The notes under the pieces were generated by a model. It had not been told where the DNA came from. It was given only the letters and a program-made list of their open reading frames with translations, and searched no databases. This document shows, piece after piece, positions 8,260-57,172 of a stretch of 64,000 nucleotides of DNA. Numbering within the stretch: position 1 is the first letter of the stretch; each line of letters begins with the position of its first letter. This DNA is from Carcharhinus amblyrhynchos (lineage: Eukaryota): positions 98,270,001 through 98,334,000 of the forward strand of contig OZ336872.1 in the NCBI GenBank assembly GCA_965287045.1, written 5' to 3'. A program made the translations under genes and the position numbers.

Positions 8260-8876
8260 TCAGACAGCACTGTCTCTGAATAATATAGTGTCAGTATGAT
8301 CACCGTTGATGCTGACAACAAAATCATTCTGCTTAGCATCCTTTGGATGAAGAAGCACAGGGAATCCAGGAACTGTCTTGTCAAAGTTTTCCATGGTAAT
8401 TTTGTAGTAACCTTTGGAAGTGCAGCTTATTACAGAGGCAAACTGTTGACTGAGTTGAATTTCCTCAGCAATATAGGAGGTTCTCTTTTGGCAAGTCTCT
8501 CCTGTATCTTCCTGTTCTGCTGTCAAGAAAATTACTATCTCATAGTAGGCTGGCATCTTTCCTTGAATCAGTGGATAAAGAGGGCTGTTTTGATTGATGG
8601 TGTGGCAGAACATAAGTGGAAAGACAAGGTATGGACTCTCGTTTGAGTTCATGTTGTCGACGTGAAAGTCGAGGTTTGTCTGATGAAGGTGTTGGTTTTT
8701 GTACTCTTGGTATAGAATGGCAGTTACTTTAACGCGTGTTAATGGACTTTGTCTGATGTTGGCTACTCTAAACATCAAACAAGGCTCCCCTTCACGGTTT
8801 CCAACAGTAGCAAAGTAACTGAATTTAATTGCAGTTGCTCTAAGCTTTGGTCTGGCAATCTTTGCCACAAAGGCAC
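8260..8876 (-). CDS. KCNJ13: Kir7.1, last coding exon (cytoplasmic domain to stop)
   Basis: Acceptor T11-ACAG|GT. Joins in frame as ITG-AFVAKIARPK; contains CLMFRVAN.R.SPL, QKRTSY and MENFDKTVP. 478+617=1095 nt, giving 364 aa plus stop. Confidence 0.97.
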
Positions 8877-9315
8877 CTGTAAAAAAAAAAATTAACTTTA
8901 ATAAGTAAACTTTCTGGAAAAATTATTTCTACTATGAGACACTAGCATATTATTAGTGCTAACGTATATCGTACATTATGACCCCAGAATCAAATCCTCA
9001 TCCCTTTGTAAGCAATTTAATGAATGTCCCAAGCCATTGTCTTAATATAAAGTGACTGTGCAATCAATAACTTTCATGCTATTTAAAAAGATCAGATATA
9101 TATACATGAAGGCATTGTAAAGATATTTTTTCATTGTTTGAAGCTACAGTATTTAATAAGCCGTTACATGCCCTGACTGCATATCCACAATTCTTTAAAA
9201 TGGTTTAGTAGTTGCAGATAATTCAGTCATTCAGACCTTCAAAATCTGCTGAGATTATATAATAAAATTCAGAGAAGCATTTCTCTTGAATTATATTCTT
9301 TTAAAGAATAATTAC

Positions 9316-9793
9316 CTGTAATTAAAGCTTCCACCATGAGTCCTAGCAGCATCTGGATTGCAAGAAGTGCAATGGCAGCTGGACAGTCACCATCAGGGTA
9401 CATGGTTCCATAACCAATTGTAAGCTGAGTTTCCAGGGAGAATGAGAAGGCTGCTGTGAAGCTGTCGATATATTTCACACAGATGGTGTGGTTTTCTGGA
9501 GGGTTGTTATGATCGAGCAGATCTAAATCACCATTTGTATATGCCAATAAGTACCAAAAGCAGGCAAAGAAGAGCCAATGAGCAACAAAAGCTCCTGAAA
9601 ACGTCAGTAACATCCAGCGCCATCTCATTTCCACTAAGATTGACCAGATATCTTTTAGGTGTACAATGCTTTTTCCGCTGAGGGACTCCATCTTGAGATT
9701 GCTGTGCCCATTCTTAGTGATGATTCTTTTGTACCGAAATGCTACAAGTGGCGCAGTGACTTTTTCGTCACTATCATTGAAAACCATGTCCAT
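9316..9793 (-). CDS. KCNJ13: Kir7.1 inward-rectifier K+ channel, first coding exon (N-terminus, M1, pore, M2)
   Basis: ORF reads RIITKNGH...MRWRWMLL...NHTICV...[24 protein letters not shown]. It has the Kir7.1-type Met after GYGT. Donor ACAG|GTAAT at 9316/9315, 478 nt, phase 1. Acceptor candidates lie just upstream of the ATG (exon start 9814 or 9805). Confidence 0.97.
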
Positions 9794-10384
9794 TATTTTG
9801 CTCTCCTGGATTAGCTGTAGAACATATTGTCAGAATGTTAGTATTTGCAACTACTGGGAGTTCAATTATCATCTCATTATCTATATTTGTCTTTTTAGCA
9901 ATTACTTGTGTTGTGGATTTGCAGGATTACTTATTTACCTATTTACTTATTAACTTATTTACTTATTAACCTTTTTTCTATACTACATAAGCAGTTCCAT
10001 CCTAATGAATAGATTTCATGCACTCTTTCAGTTCAATTCATCTGGTTATTTGATGGGGCATGGGCTTGTGTTTCCCTGAAATTCTTATTGCAGTATTTTG
10101 AGAGTGCGCATTTGGAAGTGAATTTATAAAAAAAAATTAATTTTCTTCTTTGAAATTTTGAAGTGGTTAGGAAGGATCCTCGTTGTCAAGTTTTCAGATC
10201 GTGTATTTTTTTCAAATTTTTATTGATCCTTTTTGTATACATTAGCTTGATGTTAAATTCTATATCTCAAAGGACAGAGTGGTGTGATAGTAGTTCAATG
10301 TCAGATATGGATGGTATATCAAAATTTAAATAAACAGTGATAAATGAAAATTTATTATATAGCCCCTCAGTTTGCCAAATTGCC

Positions 10385-18498: not shown

Positions 18499-18783
18499 CC
18501 ATAGAATCCTACAGTGCAGGAGAAGGCCATTCGGCCCATTGAATCTGCACTCACCATAATCCCATCCAGATCTTAAATTGACCCAGAAGGGTCAATTTAG
18601 CATGGCTAATCCACCTAACCCACACATCTTTGGACCATGGGAGAAAACCAGAGCACCCAGAGGAAACCCATGCAGACATGGGGAGAATGTGCAAATCCCA
18701 CACAGACAGTGACCTAACCTGGGAATTGAACCTGGGTCCCTGGCACTGTGAGGCAGCAGTGCCAACAACTGTGCCAACCTGTT
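18499..18783 (-). mobile_element. tRNA-derived SINE (HE1/V-SINE-like)
   Basis: A/B-box head (ggcacagttgttggc...ggttcaattccc), central ggtttcctctgggtgctctgg domain, CR1-like tail. Confidence 0.88.
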
Positions 18784-19007
18784 GTCAGTATACACTGACA
18801 ACAAGAAATTTTTGATAAAACGTTGAGGCATATGGGAAAAAGTGGTTCACTGAAAATAAAGCATTTGTGGATACTAAACCAGAAGATCTTTTGATCTGGT
18901 CTCCATTCCTGACCTTGGGGTGCATGCACATCAATAACTTTAAAATATTGTTATGACAATCAAACTCCATTTAATAATAAATCTGGGAGTGAGTTGAAGT
19001 AAAAAAG

Positions 19008-24817: not shown

Positions 24818-25120
24818 TAAAGTTTATTTATTAGTCACAAGTAGGCTTACATTAACATTGCAATGAAGTTACTGTGAAAATCCCCTAGTCGCCACACTTC
24901 AGCACCTGTTCAGTTACACTGAGGGAGAATTTAGCATGGCCAATGCCCTAACCACCACGTCTTTCAAACTTTGGGAGGAAACCAAAGCATCTGGAGGAAA
25001 CCTATGTTAACATGGGGAGAATGTGCTGACTCTGCAGAGTGACCCAAGCCCAGAATTGAACCCGGGCTGCTGGTGCTGTAAGGCAGCAGTGCTAACTACT
25101 ACTATGCCACTGTGCTGCCC
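24818..25120 (-). mobile_element. Full-length tRNA-derived SINE with alternative tail
   Basis: Head ggcagcacagtggc...gttagcactgctgcc...gggttcaattc; tail ...gtgactaataaataaacttt. Confidence 0.88.
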
Positions 25121-27294
25121 TTCTGTGACTGTGACTTTTTTTTCTTTTAAAAGGTCTTTTTGGAAGACTTTGATTGTTATTAAAATAATGACTGGCTCCA
25201 TTATCCATCCAGACAGCTTAGTCCTTGCTCTTATCATGGAACCTGTTGACAAACTGATCAATTGATTCTTGTGGTGGTTTTCTGTAAACCATCAGCTCCA
25301 GTCAATGTATTCTGAAGTTCACCTTTATATGAAGTTACTCTTCCAGCATGTTTTCCCACAGCTTAACAGCATTGTCATTCTCCATAGAGAGGCCCCAAGT
25401 ATTCACTGTATTTGTAATGGCTTTCTTTACTTTCACCGCTTTTTTATCCGGTTCTGTAACAGATAAATCTACAAAGCATAATCCCATCCCTTGTTTAAAA
25501 AGTTTGAATAGGATTTCTGTTGCCTTCCACCTCATGTTGGGGAATTTAGTGGTCATCCTTTTAAAGTTCCCCATCTTTTACAGAACCCCACAACTTATGG
25601 CTTTACTCTGTCGAGATTCAGCAGCGCAGCTGCTTTTTAAATAATTTTTTGGCTGCTGTTCAGGTTTTTACTTTACTAAATCCAATGGTGCTATTCTCCC
25701 ATTTTGTGTTTTTTTGGCTTATGCATTGCAGTATAACTCAACAGATAGATCTGCTGAAGGAATTGAGCACCCTCCATTACTCAACAAAAGCTGCAACACC
25801 TTCACTATCTGTTGGTCACATTCCATTTGACATCGGTTCCTTGATGTGCATTATTTGTATATTCTCCTAAAGTGATATCTAAATAGGTAGAAGGCCTGCC
25901 TGGTTCTCGGGGACAGCAGCTCAACTTCCAGCATCATTCTTGTGTCCCATAGACCTCACCCACCACCCACTCTGTATACATCCATGCCCCTTTCCATAAC
26001 TACTCAGAGTATCTACTACGGGCAAACCTTTGGATATCTTTGAAACAGACACTTAAAAAAATTAACAATATAGTGGAGTTGTCATTCAAATACCCTTCAT
26101 ATTGAAAAAACTCATTCATAAAAGTCATTCAAAAAATTAAAGCCATATGGTCATTCTGTTGTTTTAAAAAAAGTCACCCATCACATCAAAGATATTCCTT
26201 TTATAATATCTTAAGAACTGTCAACAAAAATGTGAATGTTTTTAGCAAATGAACCTAGAGTGTTGAAACTCAGCCAACCATTCATAATGAACTCGAGTAT
26301 GATAAAAATCCTTGAAAATGTGAAATGTAGAGTCTATTAGAAAAACATTTTATTGAAAAGTAATCATGGTAGCCAGCGCCGAATTTTAATAATATTTAAG
26401 TCTGAAACTGAAGAAATGAATGACCTTTTTTCCTGCAACTAGAGCAGATATCTTATCAATTCGAAGTGATCTAGCAGCTGTTAGTTTTTTCCCCCCTTAA
26501 ATGCAAGCTGCTGAAGGTTTTTCAATTCGAGTCAGCTCTGGTATTTCAGTCACTTCAGATCATCACACCAGAGACTCCAAGCAATATTTTCTTCAGTTTT
26601 GAACGTACAGAAGCACTTACCGAATGAGAAAATTACTCCGATACATCTCAACACTTAATTACATTGACCAGCACTGTTTTTGTCTTTGCAGGACAAGCCC
26701 TTTAATCATTGTAGTTAAAACATTTAATGCAGTTGAAATATTGCAACACAAACTACAATATATGGTCTTTTTAGCACTTATCTATCAGAATGTTCCTGAC
26801 TCCTCAGCAGTACAAACTCTGTAACAAAGTTTTGTTTTTAGACCTTCCAAAACTCACACCATGTAAAATAGGTTGAATGTGTGGGGAGGGAGGATATTCA
26901 GATTTCCTCTCAGGTTTATAATGATGACCCTGACCTAAGGAGAGGTGTTGGTGAGCTCAAGAAAGCACATCAAATTAAATTAGAGCAAAAAACTCCAAGT
27001 TTTGTGTCATCACGCCCCCAGCCCTATCCCATTCCCACATCACCAGACAAAAATTCAGCCCCATTAGCAATGCCACAGGCAGTTGGCTAATAGAAAAATC
27101 ATGCTGTGTGGATTTATGTAGCATAATTTACTCCTATATATCCAGTGTAGATTTGTCATTTATATACAGAGAATACTGGTGATCCCTCAGACAGAATTTT
27201 ATAAACACCAGCCCAAAGGTTAAAAAAGTAACTACCATATTGGAGCATGATTTGTTGCTTTGGTTACATTTATAATGAGGTATGAAGGGAGGAA

Positions 27295-27469
27295 CAGTTA
27301 GAAGCCTCAGAACACCAGGCTAAAGTCCAATAGGTTTATGTGGAATCCTAAGCTTCAGGTGAGCAGCACTCCAAAAGTTTGTGATTCTAAATAAACCTGT
27401 TGAACTTTAACCTGTATGGTGAGACTTCTTACTGTGCCCACCCCAGTCCAATGGCTTCGTTTCCACATC
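27295..27469. mobile_element. Palindromic Penelope-type short element, internally deleted, with TSD
   Basis: Inverted arms caggctaaagtccaataggtttat / ataaacctgttgaactttaacctg; flanked by atgaagggaggaa (27282-27294) and ataaagggaggaa (27470-27482); homologous to 54768-54990. Confidence 0.75.
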
Positions 27470-27989
27470 ATAAAGGGAGGAAAAAAGAGGGAAAATAGTT
27501 GCACTTTGGGCAGCTTTTACTTAAAGATACCTGAATAGACATTGTGAGTATTGAAAGTTCTGACCTGTTCCTTGCTTGAGTTATGCCATGCATTTGAACA
27601 GTTGTCATATCCAGAGCAGGCACTTCTAAAGGAACGTTGGAAAGAAAAACATTTGTAAAGGTATAAAATGCTAAGGCAGAGAAATGGGTAAAGCATTGTC
27701 AATTACAATTGCCATAATGCTTATAATCAACTAGGCGTTTCAGGATAATGATCACAAATAGGAGCTAAGGTCAAGTTCTCATTCCTAATTGGTACGCTCA
27801 GGCTGATGGTGTATCTACCCTGTTGAACAAGTTCACTACACAAAGGGCAGTGAACCGAGGCCTTTTTTGGTCATGTTTAACGTTCCTTACTATTAATAGC
27901 ATTGTTGCTGTTGAGCATTTACATGATTTTTAGTGTTACTTAGTGTACAAACTTTTTCCAAACGTTTTAACGTGGGTCACGTTCTACAG

Positions 27990-33282: not shown

Positions 33283-33570
33283 TCGTTTATTTATTAGTCA
33301 CTAGTAGGCTTACAGTGACACTGCAATGAAGTTACTGTGAAAATCCCCTAGTCACCATATTCCGGTGCCTGTTCGGGTACACTGAGGGAGAATTTAGCAC
33401 GGCCAATGCACCTAACTAGCACATCTTTTGGATTGTGGGAGGAAACCAAAGCACCCAGAGGAAAAAAAACCATGCAGACAGAAGAGAACATGCAGACTCT
33501 GCACGGATAGTGATCCAAGTGGGAATCAAACTTGTGTCCCCGTGAGGCAGCATTGCTAATCACTGTGCCT
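33283..33570 (-). mobile_element. tRNA-derived SINE with alternative tail
   Basis: Homologous to 24818-25120. Confidence 0.85.
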
Positions 33571-34869
33571 CCCCAAAATGTGTGAGGGCCCATTCCTCAT
33601 TGGTATTAATCATTGGCATTAATTGAAGTACTACATTGGAGACCTGTCCTAATAGGAAGAAACATCCTCAATCTTTTTTGAGTCAGTTATTATCAATCTG
33701 GATAGGAATTGATTTAAAAATCTGGGATATAAATAGAAAAACAGTAATGCCATAGATAATACATATACACTCACACAGATCAGAAATGAGAATAGTCCAA
33801 AATTAAATATCCAAATATATACAAATCAGTCGTTGATTTGTCAGTGAAGAATAGATAGTGGAATGTTGCGGATGTTGCTATCTGTGATTCCATTGACGCT
33901 GGCTTCAAGTGAATGAATTGGTTTTGAGATTTGTGTTCTGCAATTTGGCTGAGAAGCAGTCCTGTTTCCTTTTTAGACAGTTTGTCGTTACCTGTAAAAC
34001 CTTTGCAGAGGTTTGCTGTGTCTTTCCTCCTGTGTCAACCCAAGGAACTGGTCATCTGGCATTAATCAACCATGATTATTCAGCTGGCTTTTATCCTAAA
34101 TCCCTGGAAGATGAAAATCCATAAACCGGCCTGGGATGTAGCCCTCACAATATTCTTCCTGCTGAGATGATAAACATCCATTATCTCCGCAGGAGATGAC
34201 AGTTTCTGTATGTTTTTTGTGCTGTTGATACCTTATCTGGAAAATGGGCATGATTCCATCGTCTTTCTCTTAGCATCACCCACTAGCAATTCAACCAGTG
34301 ACTGAATTTACATCCATTTTCCTTCCATCACCACGGTAATCTATCATTCTATATATTTATCTGTATCATCCTATCTGTGTAATGGAAAAGGCTTTACATT
34401 CGCTGAAGCTATTACTGGCTATGACTCACACAAGAAATTTCTAGCTTTCAGAAAACCACAGCAACCTCGTGACCTCTAAAGAGGTGCTAATGCTCCCTGT
34501 GGCTGCAAAAATCAAATTCCAAGGAAATGCAAAATGGCCCCATTACATTTCTGAGAAGCCCTGGCCAATGGGGCTGATATCTCTGTGAGGACAAAGGAAT
34601 CTCTGGTGAATTTATTCACCGGAGATTCTCTGGTGAATTTATTAATGGATGAAATGTTAACCATCTCGATAGTCCAGATCAAGGACATATATCCTTTTTT
34701 GAAACTAAGGGAAAGAAGTGGGCATTATATTACGTGCATCCCTGAAGCTCCTAGAACCTGTAATGTTGCCTTATGAAGTTAAAGGAGGCAGTCTGCTATC
34801 TTCATTCAACAAAAGAGCAGCAGAATCAGGCTGTGTCCAGATTTAAATCGCTTGGCACTTAAAAAAAAG

Positions 34870-42200: not shown

Positions 42201-43117
42201 GCTTAATCGTCTTTGTCGTGCAACCTGTCTCTCCCATTTGTATTCATAATCATCACCTGCCTCCCTGAGAAAATGTCCTTGATTGGTTGATCCACCCCAA
42301 ACAGTCCCATTTCCAACTTCTGAAAAGTCCTTGAATATATCATTGATTTCCAAATTTGTATTTCTTTGGACATTCCCTGTTTAAATTTGTCTGTCCTCAT
42401 TTTTGCCCGTTCTGAGCATCAAAACTGTAGTATGTAACCTTTGTGACTGTATACTTCATTCTTATTTGCAGATTTTGATGGATTGCCACATTTCTCTCCA
42501 TTGATCTGACTAAATATCTAGTTCCTTAGAACTCTCTTCATAGTACCATTTTCATCCAGATGAAATTAACCTACATATCAGAAACAGTAGTTTCTCTTTC
42601 CCTGAGTTGATCTCGCATAACCCTTTCCTCATCTACAAGAATATATATGATACTATTGAGCTTTACATCCCTAACATTACTTTTTAAGTCTTAATTTATT
42701 TCCATGCTTTCAGATGTTCTGGCTGACATCAAGTTTTGGATGATTCATAAACTCTGTCAGCACAGTATTGTTCAAATCAAAGCAATCACATCAGCCACTG
42801 GCTCACACACCAGTTCCTAACCACCAATTCTATGCTCTCCCTTGATCATTCAGGCATAATCCGACCTATTGTCTTGAGATATGTTTGATCTGAACTTGGT
42901 TTTCGATATCATATTCAGTCCAATCCCTCGTTCCATTCCTGCTATTCTCCCCATGCAAAAAATTATCCTGTAAACTTGGTGCATCAACTGCTGACATTGT
43001 CATTCATGTGACAATCACCTCCAGACTTGATTATTCCCATTGCTCTCCTTGCTGGCCTTCCATCCTCTACACTAATCTTTTAAATTATACTTCGTATGTA
43101 CTAAATTGCTGTTACTT

Positions 43118-43389
43118 ATCCTAGAATCCCTACAGTGCAGAAGGAGGCCAATTGATCCATCGAGTCTGCACCAACCACAATCCCACCCAGCACACTCCCC
43201 CGGACACTAAGTGGCAATTTAGCATGGTCAGTCAACCTAACCTGCACAACTTTGGAGTGTGGGAGGAAACCCCTGCAGACACGGGGAGGATGTGCAAACT
43301 CCACAGAGTCAGTTACCCAAGCTTGGAATTGAACCCTGGTCCCTGGCGCTGTGATGCAGCAGTGCTAACAACTGTGCCGTCATGCTGCC
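43118..43389 (-). mobile_element. tRNA-derived SINE
   Basis: gggcagcatgacggcacagttgttagcactgctgc...gggttcaattcc. Confidence 0.88.
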
Positions 43390-43589
43390 CACTTATTATC
43401 TCCATCCTTTCAAAACATTTAAATTTATTCTCCATGGCTTGGTCAACCCTACCTTGTGTGTCTTTTTTCCAGTCCTGGTTTCCTCCCAAAAGTGATGTTT
43501 CTCCTGAATCTATGTGCTGTGCTTCTTGTCCTACCATTGATGACTGTGGATTTACCTGTCCTGTTCTTTGAAACTCCCACTGGAACCTA

Positions 43590-46770: not shown

Positions 46771-47960
46771 CATTAAACTTGCTTGAACGTAGCATTGCCA
46801 GTTCTGAATGTTATCCTGCAAGCGTTCAGATATATTGGTGAGCTGGTTACTGTCTCAAACCAATATGAATAGCGTATTTAATTACTAATTTGTTTCCTTT
46901 TGGGAAAATTCACTAGCCCACCTGGTCTCCCTTTGTGTGAGCTGTTTCCGTTTTTTTATTGAAAATGATAAATCTTTGGTAATTAATCCTGAAAAATCTA
47001 GATTTAGTTTTATATCAGAACTATATTATAACTTCAGCCAAAGATCTTTCAAGGCCAAAAAGCCAGACTATGTGAGAAACCACCTATCAAAATTCTAGCC
47101 CAGTGCGTTGTAAATTAGATGCCAAACAATGTAGTCATGTAACAAAGATAAGAGTTTTATCAAAGTGCAACTGAGAATTAAGCCACATAGTTGTGAACTA
47201 TTATAGATATGCGGTTAATGTCTGCCTCAGTCTTTTTATTCTGTATTTATTTTTCCATTAGAATTGTATATTTTAAAATTTATAGATATGCAGGTTAATC
47301 TAACTGGAAAATACCAATTTATAAGTTTTAGCTGTGGGTGCTAATACTTAAGTCATTTAACTGAAAAGCAATAGCTTTTTGAAAAAGTATATGGACTTGC
47401 ATTTATGTTGCACCTTTTCATAATTTTGTAGTGCTTTGAAACATCTTGAAGGCAATAAGTCTGTCATTTTTGGATTCCAGCTCTTGCCACAATGGCTAAT
47501 ATCTAATGTAACTCCTATAAATTCTTAATCTCTGAATTTTTGTGGCACTGAAGTCTTGGGCCACTTTTTGTGATTGCATTAATGCTTGTGTGGTAATCAT
47601 AACTGTATAAACAGCATCTCCAAATCTTCCAGGAATAATTCTGAATAATCAGGTAAGTACGTTAGAAGTCTGAAGTCTCACCTAATTTAAAGCAGAATTT
47701 TTGGGAAAATTATGCTCTTTTCATAAATGCTGTTGAAAACACAGACTGCATAATATAGCTACTGTGTGACTTTCCTAAATATCTTATTTTCATATTGCAG
47801 TACTACTTTTATTTCAAAAGGCAGCATTGTCATCTGTTGGTACAAGATCTCTTGTGGATGACTTGGACCTTTTTATTGGTAGAACGTGAGGCAATGTACT
47901 GGTCAAACCTTTTAGTAGTAGATTATTTTAAATATGTATTCATTTATTCACACACTCCAG

Positions 47961-48127
47961 GGCCTTTCACTAACCAAGAAATGGCAGAATGGTTCCAGGC
48001 AGGCTACTTCACCATGTCTTTATTCGTAAAGAGAGGCTGTGATGAGGGCTTCCAGCCTTTGGGAGAGGTCATTAAGATGTGGGGCAGGGTACCTTTTGCT
48101 CCAGGACCCTCTCCTCCTCCATTGCTG
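47961..48127 (+). CDS. GIGYF2: GIGYF2 exon, GYF domain core (GPFTNQEMAEWFQAGYF...PFAPGPSPPPLL)
   Basis: TCCAG| acceptor, CTG|GTAAGA donor, 167 nt, phase 1/0; GPFxxxxMxxWxxxGYF motif. Confidence 0.97.
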
Positions 48128-48299
48128 GTAAGAACATTTACATAAGCTCCAATGAGAAATGCATAAGTAATCATTTACGATAATACATGTGCATGATAAG
48201 AGTGTTTTATGAGGCAAACTAAAATTGAATTGGAATAGAAGTATTGTTTGGCTCTAACTTTGAATTTGCAAAGCACATGTTGGCAAATGTGTTCTCCAT

Positions 48300-51200
48300 A
48301 GGATAACATTTTGTAAGGATGTTAATATTTGATTTTTGCTCAATTATTTTCATTTTTACCCAGCATGTAAGAAGCCCAACAAAAGAGGATCTAGTATTGA
48401 GGAATGAAGCAAAGCAGATAAGTAAACCCAGGGAGACATGGGCAGTGGCAATCACAGTACTGTAAGATATAAGATGAAAATAGGAAAGGACAAAAATGAG
48501 ATGAACAAAGTAAAAAATCGGGGATAGAAACTGCTTTTGTGAAGATGAGATGGAACTTGAAAGATGAACTGGAAAATAGTATTTGTAGACTAGAGGAGCA
48601 GGAGTGGGAAATATTTTAAATGGTGATCCTAGAATACAAGAAAAAATCCCGCTATAAATCAAGGGTAAACTAGTCAATGCCAAAACATCATGGATGAATA
48701 AAGAGGTACGGTCTGAAGGAAAATGGCACACATTAAGCTCATAAATGAAAGAGATGATGACGAAAGAGAACATGAAAGTGTTAGGAAAGAGGTAAAGAAA
48801 AAGTTAACACAATAAGGAACTGTAAATTAAATTATCAAGGAATGTAAAAAGAAGTAAGCAGTCTGCAGCCACTAAAATAAACAGGTTAGGGTGACCAAAC
48901 ATGATAACTTAGTTAATGACAGGAATGACAGAAATGTTCTACTTTACTTCATTATTTCCCAGGGAAATTAACAAATGACATTTGATGAAGAAAAAAATGA
49001 CATTTAAGATAGAGGGGGTGCTAATGAATAAACTAATCAAATTTAGGATGCACACTCTGGTCAGAATGGATTGCATGCTCTTATCAAAAGAAATTTTGGA
49101 AAGAGGTATATGCTGTTGTATATAAAAATTCAGTAGAAAAGGAAATAGTTTCAGCGATTGATAAACAGATAATCTTATACATATATTTGAAAAGAAAGAT
49201 AGAATAAGTCTAGGGACTTGTAGACTAGCTGATTTAACGCTGTTGGTGGGAAAAATGGTAATTTTACTAAAATATGCAATAAAAACATTGAAAAACCAAA
49301 AATACAAGCCCATGCAGTCAGTATAAAGGCCATGATTCAAAAACTTATTGAATTCTTTGAAGAAGCAACAGAGTATACTAGGGTAATGGTGATGGCATAG
49401 ATGTAAGATATTTGGATTTTCAACAGTGCTTTGCTAAAGTAAAACATAGTAAACATGCAATTACAGCTCGAGAGGTAGCACAATGGATAGTAAGCGTGCG
49501 ACAGAAAGGAAAATTGAAGTTGACTGGCAAAAGGAGGAAAATGCTGTTCCACAAAGCTAGGTGCTGGAATTGATTTCGGATTCCAATTTCAAAATGTTCA
49601 GATCGTGGGGTAATGTTAATACTACAAAACCAAAGCACAATACCAGAAAACAGTGGTAAACGTAAAACATGGTCATGTAATTAGCAAATTAATCTCTGAT
49701 ATTTTGGTAGGAAGAGCACAGATTACATAATGCTTGGACAACAATCTAAATGGGGTAGCAAAAAAAAGGATCTGGGGTACAGGTGCACAAATCAATAAAA
49801 ATATCAACACATATCAGAAACATAGCAACGAGGAGCAGGGTGGGCCTTTGAACTTGCTCCACCATTCAGTATGATCATGGTGATTGTCTGTCTCAATGTC
49901 ATATTCCTGCTTTCTCTCCATAGCCCTTGATGCCATTAAAATCTAAACAAAAAGCTATCTCTTTCATAAATACATTAAATGACTTGGTCATCACAGCCTC
50001 CTGTAGTAGGAATTCTACAGGTTCATTGCCCTTTGAGTGAATAAATATTTCATTATTTCAGTCCTAAATGGTCTATCCCATATCCCGAGACTCTGTCCCT
50101 GGTTCAAGATTCTCCTACTGTTTAGTCTGTCTAGCCCTGTTAGAATTTTTTATATTTCAGTCAGATCTTCTTTTGTCCTAAATTCCAGTCAAACTAATCT
50201 CCTCATAGGACAGTCCTGCCAACCCCTAAGACAAGTTATGAAGACATCAGCCGTATAATTTCTTTTGTCACTTAACTTGCTAAATGACCTACTCAAAACC
50301 ATTTAATTTTTACACTTTGAAACGCTTTGCATCTCTCTGCATCCTCTCAACCAGCACAAAAAAAAACTGAAATTGGAGAAATTTTAAAAAGAAACAAAAA
50401 AAATTGCATAAATGAACCCCATTTAAAGGGATCAGTGATTTAAGAGGGGGAAAAAGGTGTAGTGAACCTCCTTTGCCATTAAGATCATTTTGTTAAAAAT
50501 GTAAACCAAGCTCCAGGGTTCACTTCTGTACGAATAAGAATATAAACAGTGAATATGTTAAGCTCATATTGAATCTTGCTGTATTATTCTGGTCTCTTTC
50601 TTGCAAAAGGATTTAGAGGAACTAGAGAAGGGGCAAAAAGATTGATAAGGATACTGCGAAAATTGAGAGGATTTACTTGAGGAAGGCTGGATAGACTGGG
50701 GATTCTTTTCTGTAGAAAAGAAAATGCTGAGGGATGACCTCGTAGAAGTCTTTAAAGTTTTATGAGATCGTTGACAGGGGTAGATACAGAGAAAGTGCTT
50801 CCAGTTGTTTGATCTGATTTACTTTGTCACATGTATTAGTATACTGTGAAAAATATTGTTTCTTGTGCACTATACAGACGGAGCGTACCATTCATAGAAA
50901 AGGAAACAAGAGAGTGTGGAATGTAGAGTTACAGTCATAGCTAGGGTGTAGAGAAGGATCAACTTAATGCAAGGTAGGTCCATTCAAAAGTCTGATGGCA
51001 GCAGGGAAGAAACTGTTCTTGAGACAGTTGGTACATAACCTCAGACTTTTGTACCTTTATCCCGACGGTAGAAGGTGAAAGAGAGAATGTCCAGGGTGTG
51101 CAGGGTTCTCAATTACGCTGGCTGCTTTGCCGAGGCAGTGGCAAGTGCAGACCGAGTCAATGGATGGGAGGCTGGTTTGCATGATGGATTGGGTTACATT

Positions 51201-52230
51201 CATGACCTTTTGTAGTTTCTTGTGGTCTCGGGCAGAGGAGGACCATACCAAGCTATGATACAAACACAAAGAATGCTTTCTATGATCCATCTGTAAAGGT
51301 AGCTGACATGCCAAATTTCCTTAGTCTTCTGAAAAAGTAGAGGCTTTGGTGGGCTTTCTTAACTATAGTGTTGGTATGGGGGGACCAGGACAGGTTGGTG
51401 ATCTGGACACTTAAAAACTTAAAGCTCGCGACTGTTTCTACATCGTCCCCGGTGATGTAGACAGGGGCGTGTCCTCCACTACACTTACTGAAGCCTATGA
51501 CAATCGCCTTCATTTTGTTGACTTTGAGGGAGAGATTATTGTCACCACGCTAGTTCACCAGATTCTCTATCTCATTCCTGTCTCTGTCTTGTCATTTTTT
51601 GAGATCCGACCCACTATGGTAGTGTCATCAGCAAACTTGAAAATCAAGTTGGAGGAGAATGTGGCCACACAGTCATAGGTGTATAAGGAATATAGTAGGG
51701 GGTTGAGAACACAGCCTTGTGAGGCACTGGTGTTGAGGGTGGTGTTGCCTATCCTTACTGATTGTGGTCTGTTGGTTAGGAAGCTCAGGATCCAGTCACA
51801 GAGAGAAAAACCTAGGTCTAGACCATGGAGTTTAGAGGTGAGGTTAGTAGGAATAATGGTGTTGAAGGTTGAGCTGTAGTAATAAATAGGAGCCTGACAT
51901 AGGTGTCTTTGTTGTCTAGATGTTCCAGGGTTGAGTGCAGGGTCAGGGAGATGGTGTCTGCTATGGACCTGTTGCAGTAAGACAGAAGAACGGGGAATAT
52001 GCTGAACAGGTAATCACCAATAAATCCAATAGATAATACAGAAAACTTCATTCAAAGAATGATAAAAATGTGGAATTGTTACCACAGCCAGTTGAGGTGA
52101 GTAGCAGAGATACATTTAAAAGCAAGCTGGATAAGTATAAAAGAGGAGTGACCGGAGGAGGGAAAAATAAATGCTGGCATAAACCAATTCAGCACCTGGC
52201 TTATTTCTTTGCTGTAGACTCTGTAACTGA
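48300..52230 (+). mobile_element. Long degraded CR1 LINE with nested insertions
   Basis: Remnants of LLNSLK/DVRYLDFQ-like RT motifs at ~49340-49425 and LRDDLVEVFK at ~50725; a minus-strand CR1 3' end is nested at ~49818-50220. Confidence 0.7.
50808..51980 (-). mobile_element. Rex1/Babar LINE (RT to 3' tail) nested in CR1
   Basis: [23 protein letters not shown]; VETVASFKFL; IVKKAHQSLYFFRRLRKFG. Confidence 0.88.
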
Positions 52231-54767
52231 GCATTTTTCATTTAAAAATAGACACTTTTGAAGAGAAATGAATTGAAGAGCATGCATACCAGGGTCTGGT
52301 GATTAATAGAAAATTACTATGTCTTTGAACAACCTGATTAAGATTGGGTTTTTTCTTCATCAACCACTGATTCCCATCCCATTTTGGGATTTATTTATGC
52401 AACTTCTTTGTTTCTTTTTAAAATTAAAATTTCTCCAATTTCAGTTGTTCTTTTCTGTGCTAGTAGAGAGGATGCAGAGTGAGATGCTTGACGTGCAAAG
52501 AATAGAAAAATGTAAAAATAAATGGTATTGAGCAGATCATCATTTAGCAAGTTAATTGACAAAATACATTAAACGGCTGTTCTCCTCACAACATGTTAAA
52601 ATTGTTTTCTGCTGGTTCAGTGAAGAAAATGACATGATGTTTAAATATTTTTAAATGGCTTCAGGATAAAAATACACTATAAATCATTAATTTTATAGTA
52701 GTTAATAGGTTTGCTGCTCTTCTAGATTTTGAAGAACTTGGAGTTCTGGTTTAAATACCTTGCTCAAGCTGCAAGCCTTGATTATTCCTTCCTCTGCTTT
52801 GGCTAATTCAGTTCAGCATTTCACATCATTAAACTTGGAAAGCTGTTTTCAGTTAAATTACTTGAGCAAAATTACTTGAGTCTTCTGGAAAATTCATGTA
52901 AACAGCAAGACTGTATGCTTAGTTTTGTTAAGAAAATTCCAGAGCAACAACTTACTTTTATATCACATCTTAATGACAGGTGACCTAATAATCAAGGTCT
53001 TTAAAATTATGAAGGGGCTTTGATCTGGCGGATGCTGAGAAGATGCTCTCCATTGTGGGGAGACCAGGACTAAGGGCCATACATGAAAGATGGTCTATAA
53101 ATTCAGTAGGGATTTTAGGAGAAACTTCATTGTCCAAAGAAGGTACTTTGCAGGTGTGTTATTGAACAGACTCTAACACTAAATCATATGAAGCAATATT
53201 AATGCAAGTGGCCAAATACTTGATCAAAGAGGTAAGTTTTAAGGAGTGCCTTAAAGGTGGAGAATTATGAGTGGGACTTCCTGAATTTAGGTCATATAAC
53301 TTTAGTATACATTATAAGTGTATGTAAAATGTAATATTTTGGTGTAATTTGAAAGAACTTGAGTAATGTTGTGATTAAAGGTCCACTCTAGTCATCGAAA
53401 ACCCTCAGCAATTCACCCTAATTCACTTCATTCAGCCATAATGACATTAGTGAAATCCTGTTTTGAGGAAGCAAAAGATGACATTTAAAAGCAAAAGTTA
53501 AAAAAAGCACATGGTGTTGCTTTATGATTGGCATTATAAATTTGAATGTGTCATACTAGACAACTTCTCAAATTCAGTAACGTTATCCATGTCCTGTGAA
53601 CATCCCAGATGTCTTTTTTTTAAATGATTTAATTCTATTGTCTATCGGTGTGCGTTTAATATAACTTTGGGTTGTAACAGTAACACCTTCTTTGATTTGA
53701 TCCAGACGTTTGTATCTGTTGTATATTGATTTTCTCAAATCTTTGAGTTATTTTATTTCACAACTGAATATAAACCACAGCTATGAACTATTCCACTTGA
53801 TTCAATCATAGAAAATGGAAGCTGTGGGTTCTCTTAGTTGACTTGAGTGGGAGGCCTACCATGTTAATAAGAGCAAATGTTGACTGCCTTCCACTAAAGG
53901 ACACAAACCATCACTTGTAACTGAATTTGGGTGAAAAGGGTTGACAGTAGCAATGAGTGTAAATGATTCCGAAAATATTAGAACTCTTTCATTGGTTCCA
54001 GTAATAAGGTGAGGGCACCCTATACACAGCTTAGTCATGCACTGATCTGCAACTCCCAGATATGTAAAGGTAAATTCTTGGAAGTCAAGTTTAACTTGTA
54101 TGTATTTTGTATGTATTGTACAGCTTTAATTTTGTATGTATTGGCCTGGATTTTACAGTCAGCGGCGAAGTGACAGTGCTCACTGTTGATTTCAGGGAAA
54201 GCTGTTTAACCAAATCAACTGAGCTCTGTCACATAGATTTCACATTTCTTGATCATTTCATTCTTGCACAAACTTTAGGGACTCTGCTGTCCAGCAACAG
54301 GAATGACATTAAACTAGCTAAGATATCAGTTAGTTTGAAGAATTCTCTCAGACAACAAATGAGGAAATAAAAAATGATTATTCTTTGCATTTTAATCATT
54401 TACAGGAAATGAAATATAGATTGGGGCATGCACATGGAATTAAGGTAGAAGCTAAAATATAAACTTTAAAATCAAGTTATTTAAAAATCTTTTGAATTTA
54501 ATTGTCGCAATGTAGAAATTTGACATTCTGCAAATATGAAATAAGATATTCAGGGCAGAGAGGTTATTCAGAAGTAATTCTGAGATAGCACTTTGCTTAA
54601 AAATCCAATTACACATCTTTCAACACGGTGTAATTTTTTTCCAAGTCTTTAGCAGTGAGACTTGCAATGTTTAAAGGTGGAAGTTCATGCCAGTTCACTG
54701 ACTTCTGGATGGCTTCTAACTGCATGGGAAGCAACAGCGTATCCTGTGGAATCACAACAATTTCAGG

Positions 54768-54990
54768 ATAGTCAGAAGTCTCAGAACACCAGGTTAAAGT
54801 CCAACAGGTTTATTTGATAGTAAACACCACAAGTTTTTGGAATGCTGTTCTTTGTCACTCTCCACTTACCTGATGAAGGAACAATGTTCCGAAAGCTTGT
54901 GGCGTTTACTATCAAATAAACCTGTTGGACTTTAACCTGGTGTTGTGAGACTTCTTACTGTATTTACCCCAGTCCAACGTCGGCATCTCC
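54768..54990. mobile_element. Palindromic Penelope-type short element with TSD
   Basis: Arms 54774-54857 and 54871-54956 are reverse complements; direct repeat acaatttcagg at 54757-54767 and 54991-55001. Confidence 0.85.
54866..54902 (+). ncRNA. Putative minimal type I hammerhead ribozyme motif
   Basis: UUAC-CUGAUGA-A-GGAAC(AAU)GUUCC-GAAA-GC-UU-GUGG: both core boxes, stem II, palindromic AGCU stem III and a short stem I. Confidence 0.6.
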
Positions 54991-55575
54991 ACAATTTCAG
55001 GCAGCCGTTTAATTTTCATGGCCTACGTTGCATGTCTAATTTTGAAAAAACAGGTCAAACATTGCTGCAGCCATGCACCCATGGAATAGAACATATTTTA
55101 AATACAGCTGCATAGTATGGTGCCCATATATGAAGACTTCCAGAGTCAATGAAGCTAAGGGTAAGTTGTATGTGGTTAAATTTTACATTCAAGATCAGGT
55201 TGTTGAATTAATGAAAAATGAACCAAAGGGAAAATATGTGGATAAAATACTTGACTTTCTTAAAAGGATAGTTGCACATCAGTCAAAGTTGCTGTAATTC
55301 AGCTTAAATGATTCGTGAAAAGATATAATGTTAGGATTGGTACAGTAAGTCAATGTGGTATTTCAAAAATATAGACTTTACATTTTTAGTACAGCTCGGA
55401 TGGTTTATCATATCAATAATGTTTTGTACTGTTATTGGGATGAGAAAGTAAATTTACTTCCAGTTATGATTACAAAATTCTCCAAATCAAATTTTTTGTA
55501 CTTGATGAAAAATATTTTGTTGCTTTCTTTGCTTCGCCTCTGCACATATTTTATTCTCATCTGTTTTGTTTTCAG

Positions 55576-55688
55576 GGTGACCTGGATCAGGAAAGATTGA
55601 AAAGGCAGCAGGAACTGGCTACTTTGAATTTATATCAAATGCAGCAGATACAGTGTCAGCAGCTTCTGCAGGCGCAGCTTATGACCAG
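55576..55688 (+). CDS. GIGYF2: GIGYF2 exon (GDLDQERLKRQQEL...QLMT)
   Basis: Long pyrimidine tract, TTCAG|, donor CAG|GTAGTT, 113 nt, phase 0/2. Confidence 0.93.
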
Positions 55689-55744
55689 GTAGTTCTTAGA
55701 ACAATAAATCATAAAGGCTTTTTTTATTGTTTTGTGGGATTCTG

Positions 55745-57172
55745 GGAAGACCAGAAATTTGTTGCCCATCCCTTTATTGTCCTTGAGAAAGTCATGATCA
55801 GCTGCTGCCTTGAACCACTGAGGTCTATCTGATGCCGACAAATTCATTGTGTTGTTAGGAAGAGAGTTCCAAGATTTCAACCCTGCAACGGTGAATGATT
55901 GGCAATATACAGGTTGAGACCTTTCTGGAATTTGGCAGAATTCTGATTTTTGGATTATGGAATCCAGCTCTCTAAATTTTGATCCAACTTCCACCTCCTT
56001 TCAGCTACCTCTCCAACCCTGGCAAAGCATGGAGAAGGCTCTACCACGAGGGTACACACTACTTCTGACTGCTTGGCAGAGCTTCTGCGTTTGATGGTGA
56101 AACCAGAGTTTAGCGGGGGATATGCCTGGTGCTGCTTTCAACATGCCTCCTGCACAATTGAATCCGGATTGATCCCTTAACTTGTTGGTATATGTTAGGT
56201 GAGGGATATGTTAGGCCATAAAGTTGAAGATTATGTTCGAATACGATTCTGCTCCTGCGGATGGCCCACAGCACCTCATTGTGTCCAGTTTTGGCAGTGC
56301 TGAAATTTTCCTGTTTAGCATGTGGCGTTGCCATTCAACATGATGGAGAGCGTGCTCAGTGCGAGGATAAGATTTGAAGGAGAATGGTGGTCAGTCCTAC
56401 CTATATTATAGATGATGCATCAGTGACAGCTAAACCGTTAAGGGTATTGTCGTGTCAGTTTTTCCTCTTGTTTGTTTCCTCACGCACGCTGCTGCAAACT
56501 CTTTCTGGCAGATATGCCCTTCAGGGCTCAGTCAATACTGGTATTACCAAGCCACTTTTAGTGAAATCCCCCACCCAGAGGGCACCTGTGCCCTTGCCAC
56601 CATCAGTGCTTCTCCAAAGTGGTGTTCAATACACAAGAGTGCTGATTCAGCAACAAAGGAAGGGTGGTAAGTGATAATCAATAGCATTGGTCATGTATGG
56701 CTTGATGCCATGAGATCTCATGGGGTCTGGATTCAATGTTGAGGACTCCCAAGACCAACTCCATGTGATGAATACCACTGCACTAATGCCTGTGCTGGGT
56801 CCATCAATTTTCCTTTTTGACTTTACTGTAGTGACTTGGCACAACTAAATGGCTTGATAGTCCATTTCAGAGGGAAGGTAAAAATCAGCTACATTGCTGT
56901 GGGCCCAAAGTCACATGTAGGTCAGATCAGATAAGAATGGCAGAGTTCCTTTCCTAAAGGACACTAGTGAATCAGATGGGCTTTAATGACAATTACAAAA
57001 GCTCCATGGCAGCATTACTGAGACTAGCTTTCAATTCCAGATATTGTTTTAGTAATCAGTTGAATTTATTAATTGAATTTAGGATTATTTGGTGAGATTT
57101 GAATACACCAGGCATTAGCCAGGACACTGAATTACTCGTCCAGTGATATTACAAGTACATCACCATTTCCCC
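55745..57172 (-). mobile_element. Degraded LINE fragment plus adjoining SINE-like repeat
   Basis: Homologous to 45308-46110 and 30600-30810; 56830-57172 resembles the repeat at 30170-30260 and 1-70. Confidence 0.65.

Follow-up and report, generated by a model that had tools for sequence, protein, structure and literature searches.

How does a hammerhead ribozyme come to lie in an intron of a shark gene, and what is the short palindrome that carries it? The palindrome spans 224 bases within a 64,000-nucleotide stretch of the Carcharhinus amblyrhynchos genome (contig OZ336872.1, positions 98,270,001 to 98,334,000), which we call the window and whose first letter is position 1 below. An earlier note, made from the sequence alone, had proposed a tiny non-autonomous retroelement bearing a ribozyme. 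Our analyses indicate that the element is very probably an old, 5′-truncated, head-to-head inverted insertion of a shark Penelope-like element (PLE), and that its hammerhead is the ribozyme of the parent's pLTR, likely inactive because of a predicted hairpin that would sequester it.

The palindrome and its host intron

Re-reading the window, we found every motif of the earlier note, base for base, in its place. The minimal type I hammerhead occupies 54866..54902 of the forward strand and comprises stem I (TTAC, 54866-54869, and GTGG, 54899-54902), CTGATGA (54870-54876), a bulged extra A (54877), a 5-bp stem II with its loop (GGAAC-AAT-GTTCC, 54878-54890), GAAA (54891-54894) and GCTT (54895-54898), with a palindromic (A)GCT stem III; the predicted cut falls after 54898. 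Its assignment draws on these motifs, on conservation and covariation in the family, and on the published description of such ribozymes (PMC4209133). The hammerhead sits in a sense arm (54857..54993, forward strand) which, by identity to two longer copies (L071 and L122), represents the last 137 nt of a PLE, that is, the end of the pLTR plus the tail. This arm begins 42 nt upstream of the predicted cut; the 5′ edge preferred in the family lies 2 nt further out. The tail of ~34 nt (54960..54993, forward strand) was delimited by comparison with ORF-bearing copies and by contig ends of related species, which show heterogeneous loose ends at 54959/54960 and 54993. On the reverse strand, an inverted pLTR arm of 90 nt without tail (54768..54857), placed by arm alignment and by the outer-end offsets of the family, starts ~34-36 nt before the element's 3′ end and finishes in the decayed antisense hammerhead core that the earlier note had seen. 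The inverted segments 54770-54853 and 54876-54959 are complementary over 89% of their 84 nt and disagree at 9 positions. Both copies of the flanking 11-bp direct repeat ACAATTTCAGG were located on the forward strand, at 54757..54767 and at 54991..55001, the latter overlapping the end of the tail by 3 nt. Because no empty allele of the insertion was seen among the 15 joints listed, from a set with 392 more, in contigs of related species, their reading as a target-site duplication rests on the family statistics given below.

The element lies in a putative intron of a GIGYF gene (48128..55575, forward strand), recognized by exon homology and synteny. The GYF exon (47958-48127) ends at 48127 and is followed by GTAAG, and the reading frame resumes at 55576; this next coding exon begins 677 nt past 54898, in agreement with the ~670 nt proposed before. 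The host had been named GIGYF2. Taken alone, the GYF exon speaks against that name, with a higher score to human GIGYF1 (109.8 bits) than to human GIGYF2 (101.7 bits). However, coding exons of KCNJ13/Kir7.1 lie antisense to the GIGYF gene (8260-9829, reverse strand), and human KCNJ13 is nested in GIGYF2 on the opposite strand (PMC5314135); because of this shared arrangement, GIGYF2 is favoured.

Several other repeats lie in the window. One of them (27296-27470) is a further palindromic remnant of this PLE family; it is older and more decayed, and has kept the tail and an imperfect flanking repeat but lost the hammerhead core. Between ~43570 and 44870, a 57-nt unit (19 codons) recurs in a long tandem array that is almost perfect and open in all six frames. 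Other short interspersed repeats (18587-18784, 24818-25129, 33285-33573 and 43117-43395, among others) are common to the flanks of unrelated loci.

Conservation of the hammerhead across the family

A search of 53500-56500 against Rfam gave no hammerhead match at E≤10, only four weak unrelated ones. In the family, we parsed 183 of 193 stretches between anchors lying outside the ribozyme and found CTGAYGA in 140, GAAA in 151 and the bulged A in 179 of the 183, figures that are too high because some loci were fetched with patterns containing core letters. Departures from the core are mostly G-to-A changes at CpG sites, and an intact core together with a paired stem II occurs in 100/183. The inner letters of stem II were part of no fetch pattern. 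All 16 stem II variants seen at least three times form at least three pairs, compared with a mean of 2.1 and a maximum of 9 variants in 2000 shuffles. Pairs 2 and 3 of stem II switch between G-C and A-U, and G10.1-C11.1, in the hammerhead position numbering that also gives A9, is invariant. Stem III has the palindrome AGCT in at least 155 of the 183, and stem I pairs UCAC with GUGA or GUGG. The family consensus thus keeps the core and covaries in stem II, and the minimal type I hammerhead proposed from the single copy is a real motif.

Two defects had been held against the window copy. The CUU triplet is none, since GCTT outnumbers every other form in the family (105/183). As for the two G-U pairs of stem I, the second does mark damage, as 171 of the 183 copies have C at that position.

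A Penelope-like parent

A first look at the 2.9-Gb genome returned 7,163 candidate copies. We compared upstream sequence in 30 of the 662 loci that have sequence just 5′ of the core, and several of the 30 share 0.3-1.5 kb there, which belongs to the window copy's own subfamily and encodes, in broken frames, an RT (RVT_1, E 3.9e-7) and a GIY-YIG region; Pfam recognized no family in two broken fragments of this subfamily. A protein search of the genome then gave 16,196 candidates, many with long open frames. Twelve loci were inspected, 11 with frames of 917-979 codons and one with 704; in the young copies the frames measure 917-928 codons. From its ATG, the ORF of a young sister subfamily encodes 892-893 amino acids and contains YIDD, the linker CHSNLCKTC and a GIY-YIG domain (24.5 bits, against a Pfam cut-off of 22.6); the 893-aa form matches RVT_1 at E 1.5e-9 and had no match at E≤1 in a PDB sequence search. 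Its closest named relatives are proteins of the sharks Mustelus (91%), Scyliorhinus (86%) and Heptranchias (84%). The earlier note had linked the palindrome to PLEs and had asked for an autonomous GIY-YIG partner; longer copies of the same subfamily supply the former, and the intact 893-aa ORFs the latter. These intact ORFs are all from the younger sister, and no ORF-intact member of the window copy's own subfamily was found.

The window sense arm is identical at 131/137 positions to the 3′ end of an RT/EN-bearing copy (L071) and at 114/137 to an ORF-intact copy of the younger sister subfamily (L122). In full-length copies, the hammerhead of the pLTR precedes the ATG by ~95 nt, and the tail end adjoins the ORF, reading CACATC/ATG ACT ACT ATC in eight of nine ORF copies and CACATT/ATG in the other. 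Copies of the young subfamily (e.g., L117-L126) are near-identical, with uninterrupted 917-codon frames, and occur in tandem and inverted pairs; the self-matches in L117-L128 are pLTRs in partial tandem or inverted arrangement. The parent family thus has a single ORF with RT and C-terminal GIY-YIG, as in EN+ PLEs, of which the window copy retains no ORF. The linker in two of its proteins (P0001 and P0002) is of the form CX4CX2C, and CX2-5CxxC in the RT-EN linker is described as a Neptune trait that is also present in Nematis (PMC8557442). Placed by this motif rather than by a tree, the parent likely belongs to the Neptune clade; the closest protein matches included no clade-labelled references. 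A search of the literature, as distinct from Repbase and Dfam, returned no published description of this shark family.

Copies of graded length

The family is abundant, with 3,907 exact genomic matches to a 42-nt tail motif of the old subfamily and 14,506 to a 34-nt tail motif of the young one. We sampled 90 old and 30 young tail-anchored loci among the first listed on contig 1 and removed nine segmental duplicates and one wrongly oriented locus, which left 85 old and 25 young copies; arms below the 59-nt anchor cannot appear in this sample. The sense arm is shorter than 150 nt in 52/85 old and 13/25 young copies and at least 300 nt long in 23/85 and 8/25, respectively, and an adjacent inverted arm is present in 75 of the 110 (60/85 old, 15/25 young). 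In 50 of the 60 old-subfamily inverted arms, the outer end is offset by 18-45 nt (mode 36), which corresponds to a 30-40-nt tail at one end only. Among the 63 copies whose inverted arm starts within 60 nt of the 3′ end, 44 are flanked by duplications of at least 10 nt (at most one mismatch; median 11), whereas shuffled pairings gave a mean of 0.88 and a maximum of 5. Truncation at the 5′ end, an adjacent inverted copy, a 30-40-bp tail and a short target-site duplication are the layout described as typical of PLEs (PMC8557442; PMC3846280), and the window arms are this known inverted pLTR, not TIRs in the MITE sense.

Might the ~220-bp palindrome nevertheless be the replicating unit, the tiny non-autonomous retroelement of the earlier note, in the form of a SINE- or retrozyme-like mini-element transcribed and re-copied by PLE protein? 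The 30 closest copies have both outer ends in common at 205-249 nt, both arms measure at most 150 nt in 41 of the 63 inverted copies, and PLE-derived non-autonomous retrozymes have been described (10.64898/2026.07.22.740005). However, those 30 copies were themselves picked for likeness to the window copy, and their centres still differ; arm lengths form a graded series, with arms as short as 59 nt and others of at least 1.9 kb; and the window copy is single and head-to-head, without a tandem of hammerhead units. The window junction motif occurs at only two loci genome-wide, the second having a different stem II and belonging to another subfamily, instead of one fixed interior at many loci as in a SINE or MITE. 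The short copies therefore arise separately, as truncated insertions of a long parent with RT and GIY-YIG, and are not copied from a mini-element. We regard self-replication of the palindrome as very unlikely and, for the window junction, as largely refuted.

Three further arrangements were observed in the family. Perfectly palindromic head-to-head junctions centred on the ribozyme AGCT (L311/L312 and L314/L315, among others) account for 22 pairs among 100 matches listed, which suggests joining by annealing at a self-complementary site. Two mini-palindromes with intact-looking cores lie in direct tandem 303 nt apart (L138/L139; G000:C1:6616012 and 6616315), from which a retrozyme-like array might start. 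Four pLTR-derived matches spaced by 49 nt (G000:C11:58609773-58609949) form a small tandem array that begins near the cleavage site.

Folding and age of the window copy

The earlier note had warned that a long arm-to-arm hairpin would sequester the ribozyme core, and folding predictions bear this out. The hairpin reaches -131.4 kcal/mol (z = -16.6), a value matched by none of 200 shuffles; in the whole element, the pair probability of stems I and II is 0.000, and imposing the hammerhead fold carries a penalty of 30.4 kcal/mol. In the intron transcript, the left arm would be made first, and the right arm would therefore pair with it on emergence. Because it is locked in this predicted hairpin, the window ribozyme is likely inactive in the host pre-mRNA. 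As the core letters are intact and the sense arm folded alone still forms stem II (P ~0.93; stem I, P <0.02), this inactivity is a folding prediction and not an assay result.

The insertion is old. Two contigs from related species (X8 and X10) cross into the left arm by 34 nt and show 11 differences in ~500 nt; two others (X7 and X11) reach 29-30 nt into the element, under the 31-nt threshold set for a bridge. If the arms were identical at insertion, their mismatches would correspond to ~5% divergence per arm, and the insertion is probably common to several species.

Such persistence, together with an intact core in sense orientation, could point to a ribozyme at work, or co-opted, in the GIGYF2 intron, where it would cut the pre-mRNA with the help of a protein or a trans partner. 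An anole PLE hammerhead is indeed reported to cleave when PLE protein is added, and only then, although it was dispensable for insertion (PMC11167929). In the window copy, however, the predicted hairpin sequesters the core and stem I has lost the Watson-Crick pair kept in 171/183 family copies, and a single minimal hammerhead is reported not to cleave in vitro (PMC4209133). Moreover, the sense arm differs from L071 at 6 of 137 positions, and because three of these fall inside the ribozyme there is no sign of its protection. A function in the host intron is thus highly improbable. Scarcely credible is a MITE of a DNA transposon with TIRs and a hammerhead-like motif arisen by chance, which would suit a short, palindromic, high-copy sequence with a direct repeat at its flanks and no Rfam match but is refuted by the parent, an RT/GIY-YIG element whose 3′ end the palindrome represents, as well as contradicted by the covariation of stem II and by a repeat made asymmetric by its tail.

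End points and proposed mechanism

We examined where arms of the family end. In a 107-locus sample, the ends gather 30-48 nt before the predicted cut. Of the 21,459 young arms that reach position -40, 100 were listed; the next 9 nt take in 15 of their ends, with five exactly at GAAC and one a duplicate, and the following 10 nt contain one end, or three if two with first-letter mismatches are included (counted by eye; 15/100 versus 1/85, Fisher p = 0.0009). A TTTATAT motif lies ~20 nt upstream of this preferred 5′ edge. The edge, ~140 nt upstream of the ATG, is likely a transcription start. Pol II starts follow the Y-R rule. We also considered a spliced-leader site, with AG/AAC as the 3′ splice site. 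At the level of DNA this is disfavoured, as the five arms ending at GAAC have no common leader: the letters before GAAC differ and mostly belong to the other arm.

The two arms of a copy are coupled in length: besides the 41 copies with both arms at most 150 nt, both are longer in 17 and only 5 are mixed (n = 63). For the 17 long pairs, the Spearman coefficient is 0.70 (p = 0.002), a correlation that may owe something to the limited flanks and to the rule of adjacency.

In the 107-locus sample, eight arms of the old subfamily stop at 0 or -1 (by eye), which had raised the idea that cleavage in vivo leaves 5′ ends at the cut. The young arms gave no such excess, and the idea was dropped. Of 13,006 that reach the cut, 204 lack the base 3 nt upstream, compared with 258 in the next interval upstream, a control inflated by palindromic joins (the 22 pairs among 100 listed); inspection identified true truncations at 22/30 loci of the cut-site set and 27/30 of the control. 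The subfamily of the window copy itself gave 538 arms, and none of the 100 listed stops at the cut site, in a search that misses arms with G 12 nt upstream. There is thus no excess of ends at the predicted cut, a result with which ribozyme cleavage itself is still compatible.

For the insertion itself we propose a scheme by analogy with Poseidon of the anole, in which PLE protein would nick both target strands ~11 bp apart. Reverse transcription would start internally at the pLTR-ORF junction, at two sites one tail apart, the ATG and ~35 nt upstream of it; each cDNA would end just 5′ of the ribozyme, and the two would be linked in head-to-head orientation with 1 nt (A54857) in common. The same layout would result if a single cDNA folded back and primed itself. 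Twin initiation follows from the report that two internal RT starts define the tail (PMC11167929), self-priming has been proposed for inverted junctions (PMC3846280), and our data fit the two alike.

A broader reading is that the thousands of palindromes with ~140-nt arms are run-off products and record the PLE life cycle. RT, begun at the pLTR-ATG junction close to the 5′ end of a monomeric transcript, would reach no further than a transcription start at C(AG)AAC and would thus copy the 5′ leader alone; full-length copies would therefore need tandem read-through RNA. The two arms would be made in a coupled way, and hammerhead-cut RNA would not be the template. We hold this run-off reading tentatively, at slightly less than an even chance. 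Published accounts (PMC8557442; PMC3846280) treat as open questions what the hammerhead does in PLEs and how their inverted ends arise, and on these the family is more useful than the locus: one genome offers more than 14,000 near-identical young ends together with ORF-intact copies. Its end points impose three constraints, namely a preferred 5′ edge, coupled arm lengths and the lack of an excess at the cleavage site, and the young, ORF-intact shark family would allow a direct test of the run-off reading.

Comparison with known systems

Both the architecture and the ribozyme type are already published, and the locus is mostly ordinary, one old insertion among thousands. Like the EN+ PLEs of the Neptune clade, the shark family has a single ORF with RT and C-terminal GIY-YIG joined by a CX4CX2C linker, and it shares with EN+ PLEs partial tandems, 5′ truncation, an adjacent inverted copy, a 30-40-nt tail at one end and a target-site duplication of ~11 bp (PMC8557442; PMC3846280). 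Its TATA-like motif ~20 nt before an Inr-like site resembles that described for Adineta Pen2a (PMC3846280). Unlike full Neptune PLEs, the window copy keeps pLTR sequence only, and unlike the EN+ PLEs described, the family has no strong microsatellite target bias apparent on inspection of the listed flanks.

The hammerhead fits the description of the minimal ribozymes of metazoan PLEs (Cervera and de la Pena, 2014, PMC4209133), with a helix II of 3-5 bp compared with 7-8 bp in Schistosoma (PMC4209133). Like the non-LTR retrozymes (10.64898/2026.07.22.740005), the window copy is non-coding, carries a type I hammerhead and originates from a PLE pLTR. Retrozymes, however, are described as head-to-tail tandems with a hammerhead in each unit, whereas the window copy is one head-to-head insertion with a tail and a target-site duplication.

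A mechanistic parallel is Poseidon of Anolis carolinensis (Frangieh et al., 2024, PMC11167929), in which two 3′ end points likewise lie one tail apart near the pLTR-ORF junction and uncleaved RNA seems to be the template. In Poseidon, the ribozyme contains the start of the ORF, and reverse transcription initiates 111-118 nt into the ORF (PMC11167929). In the shark family, by contrast, the whole ribozyme precedes the ORF and the tail runs up to the ATG, and the linker motif points to a clade other than that of Poseidon.
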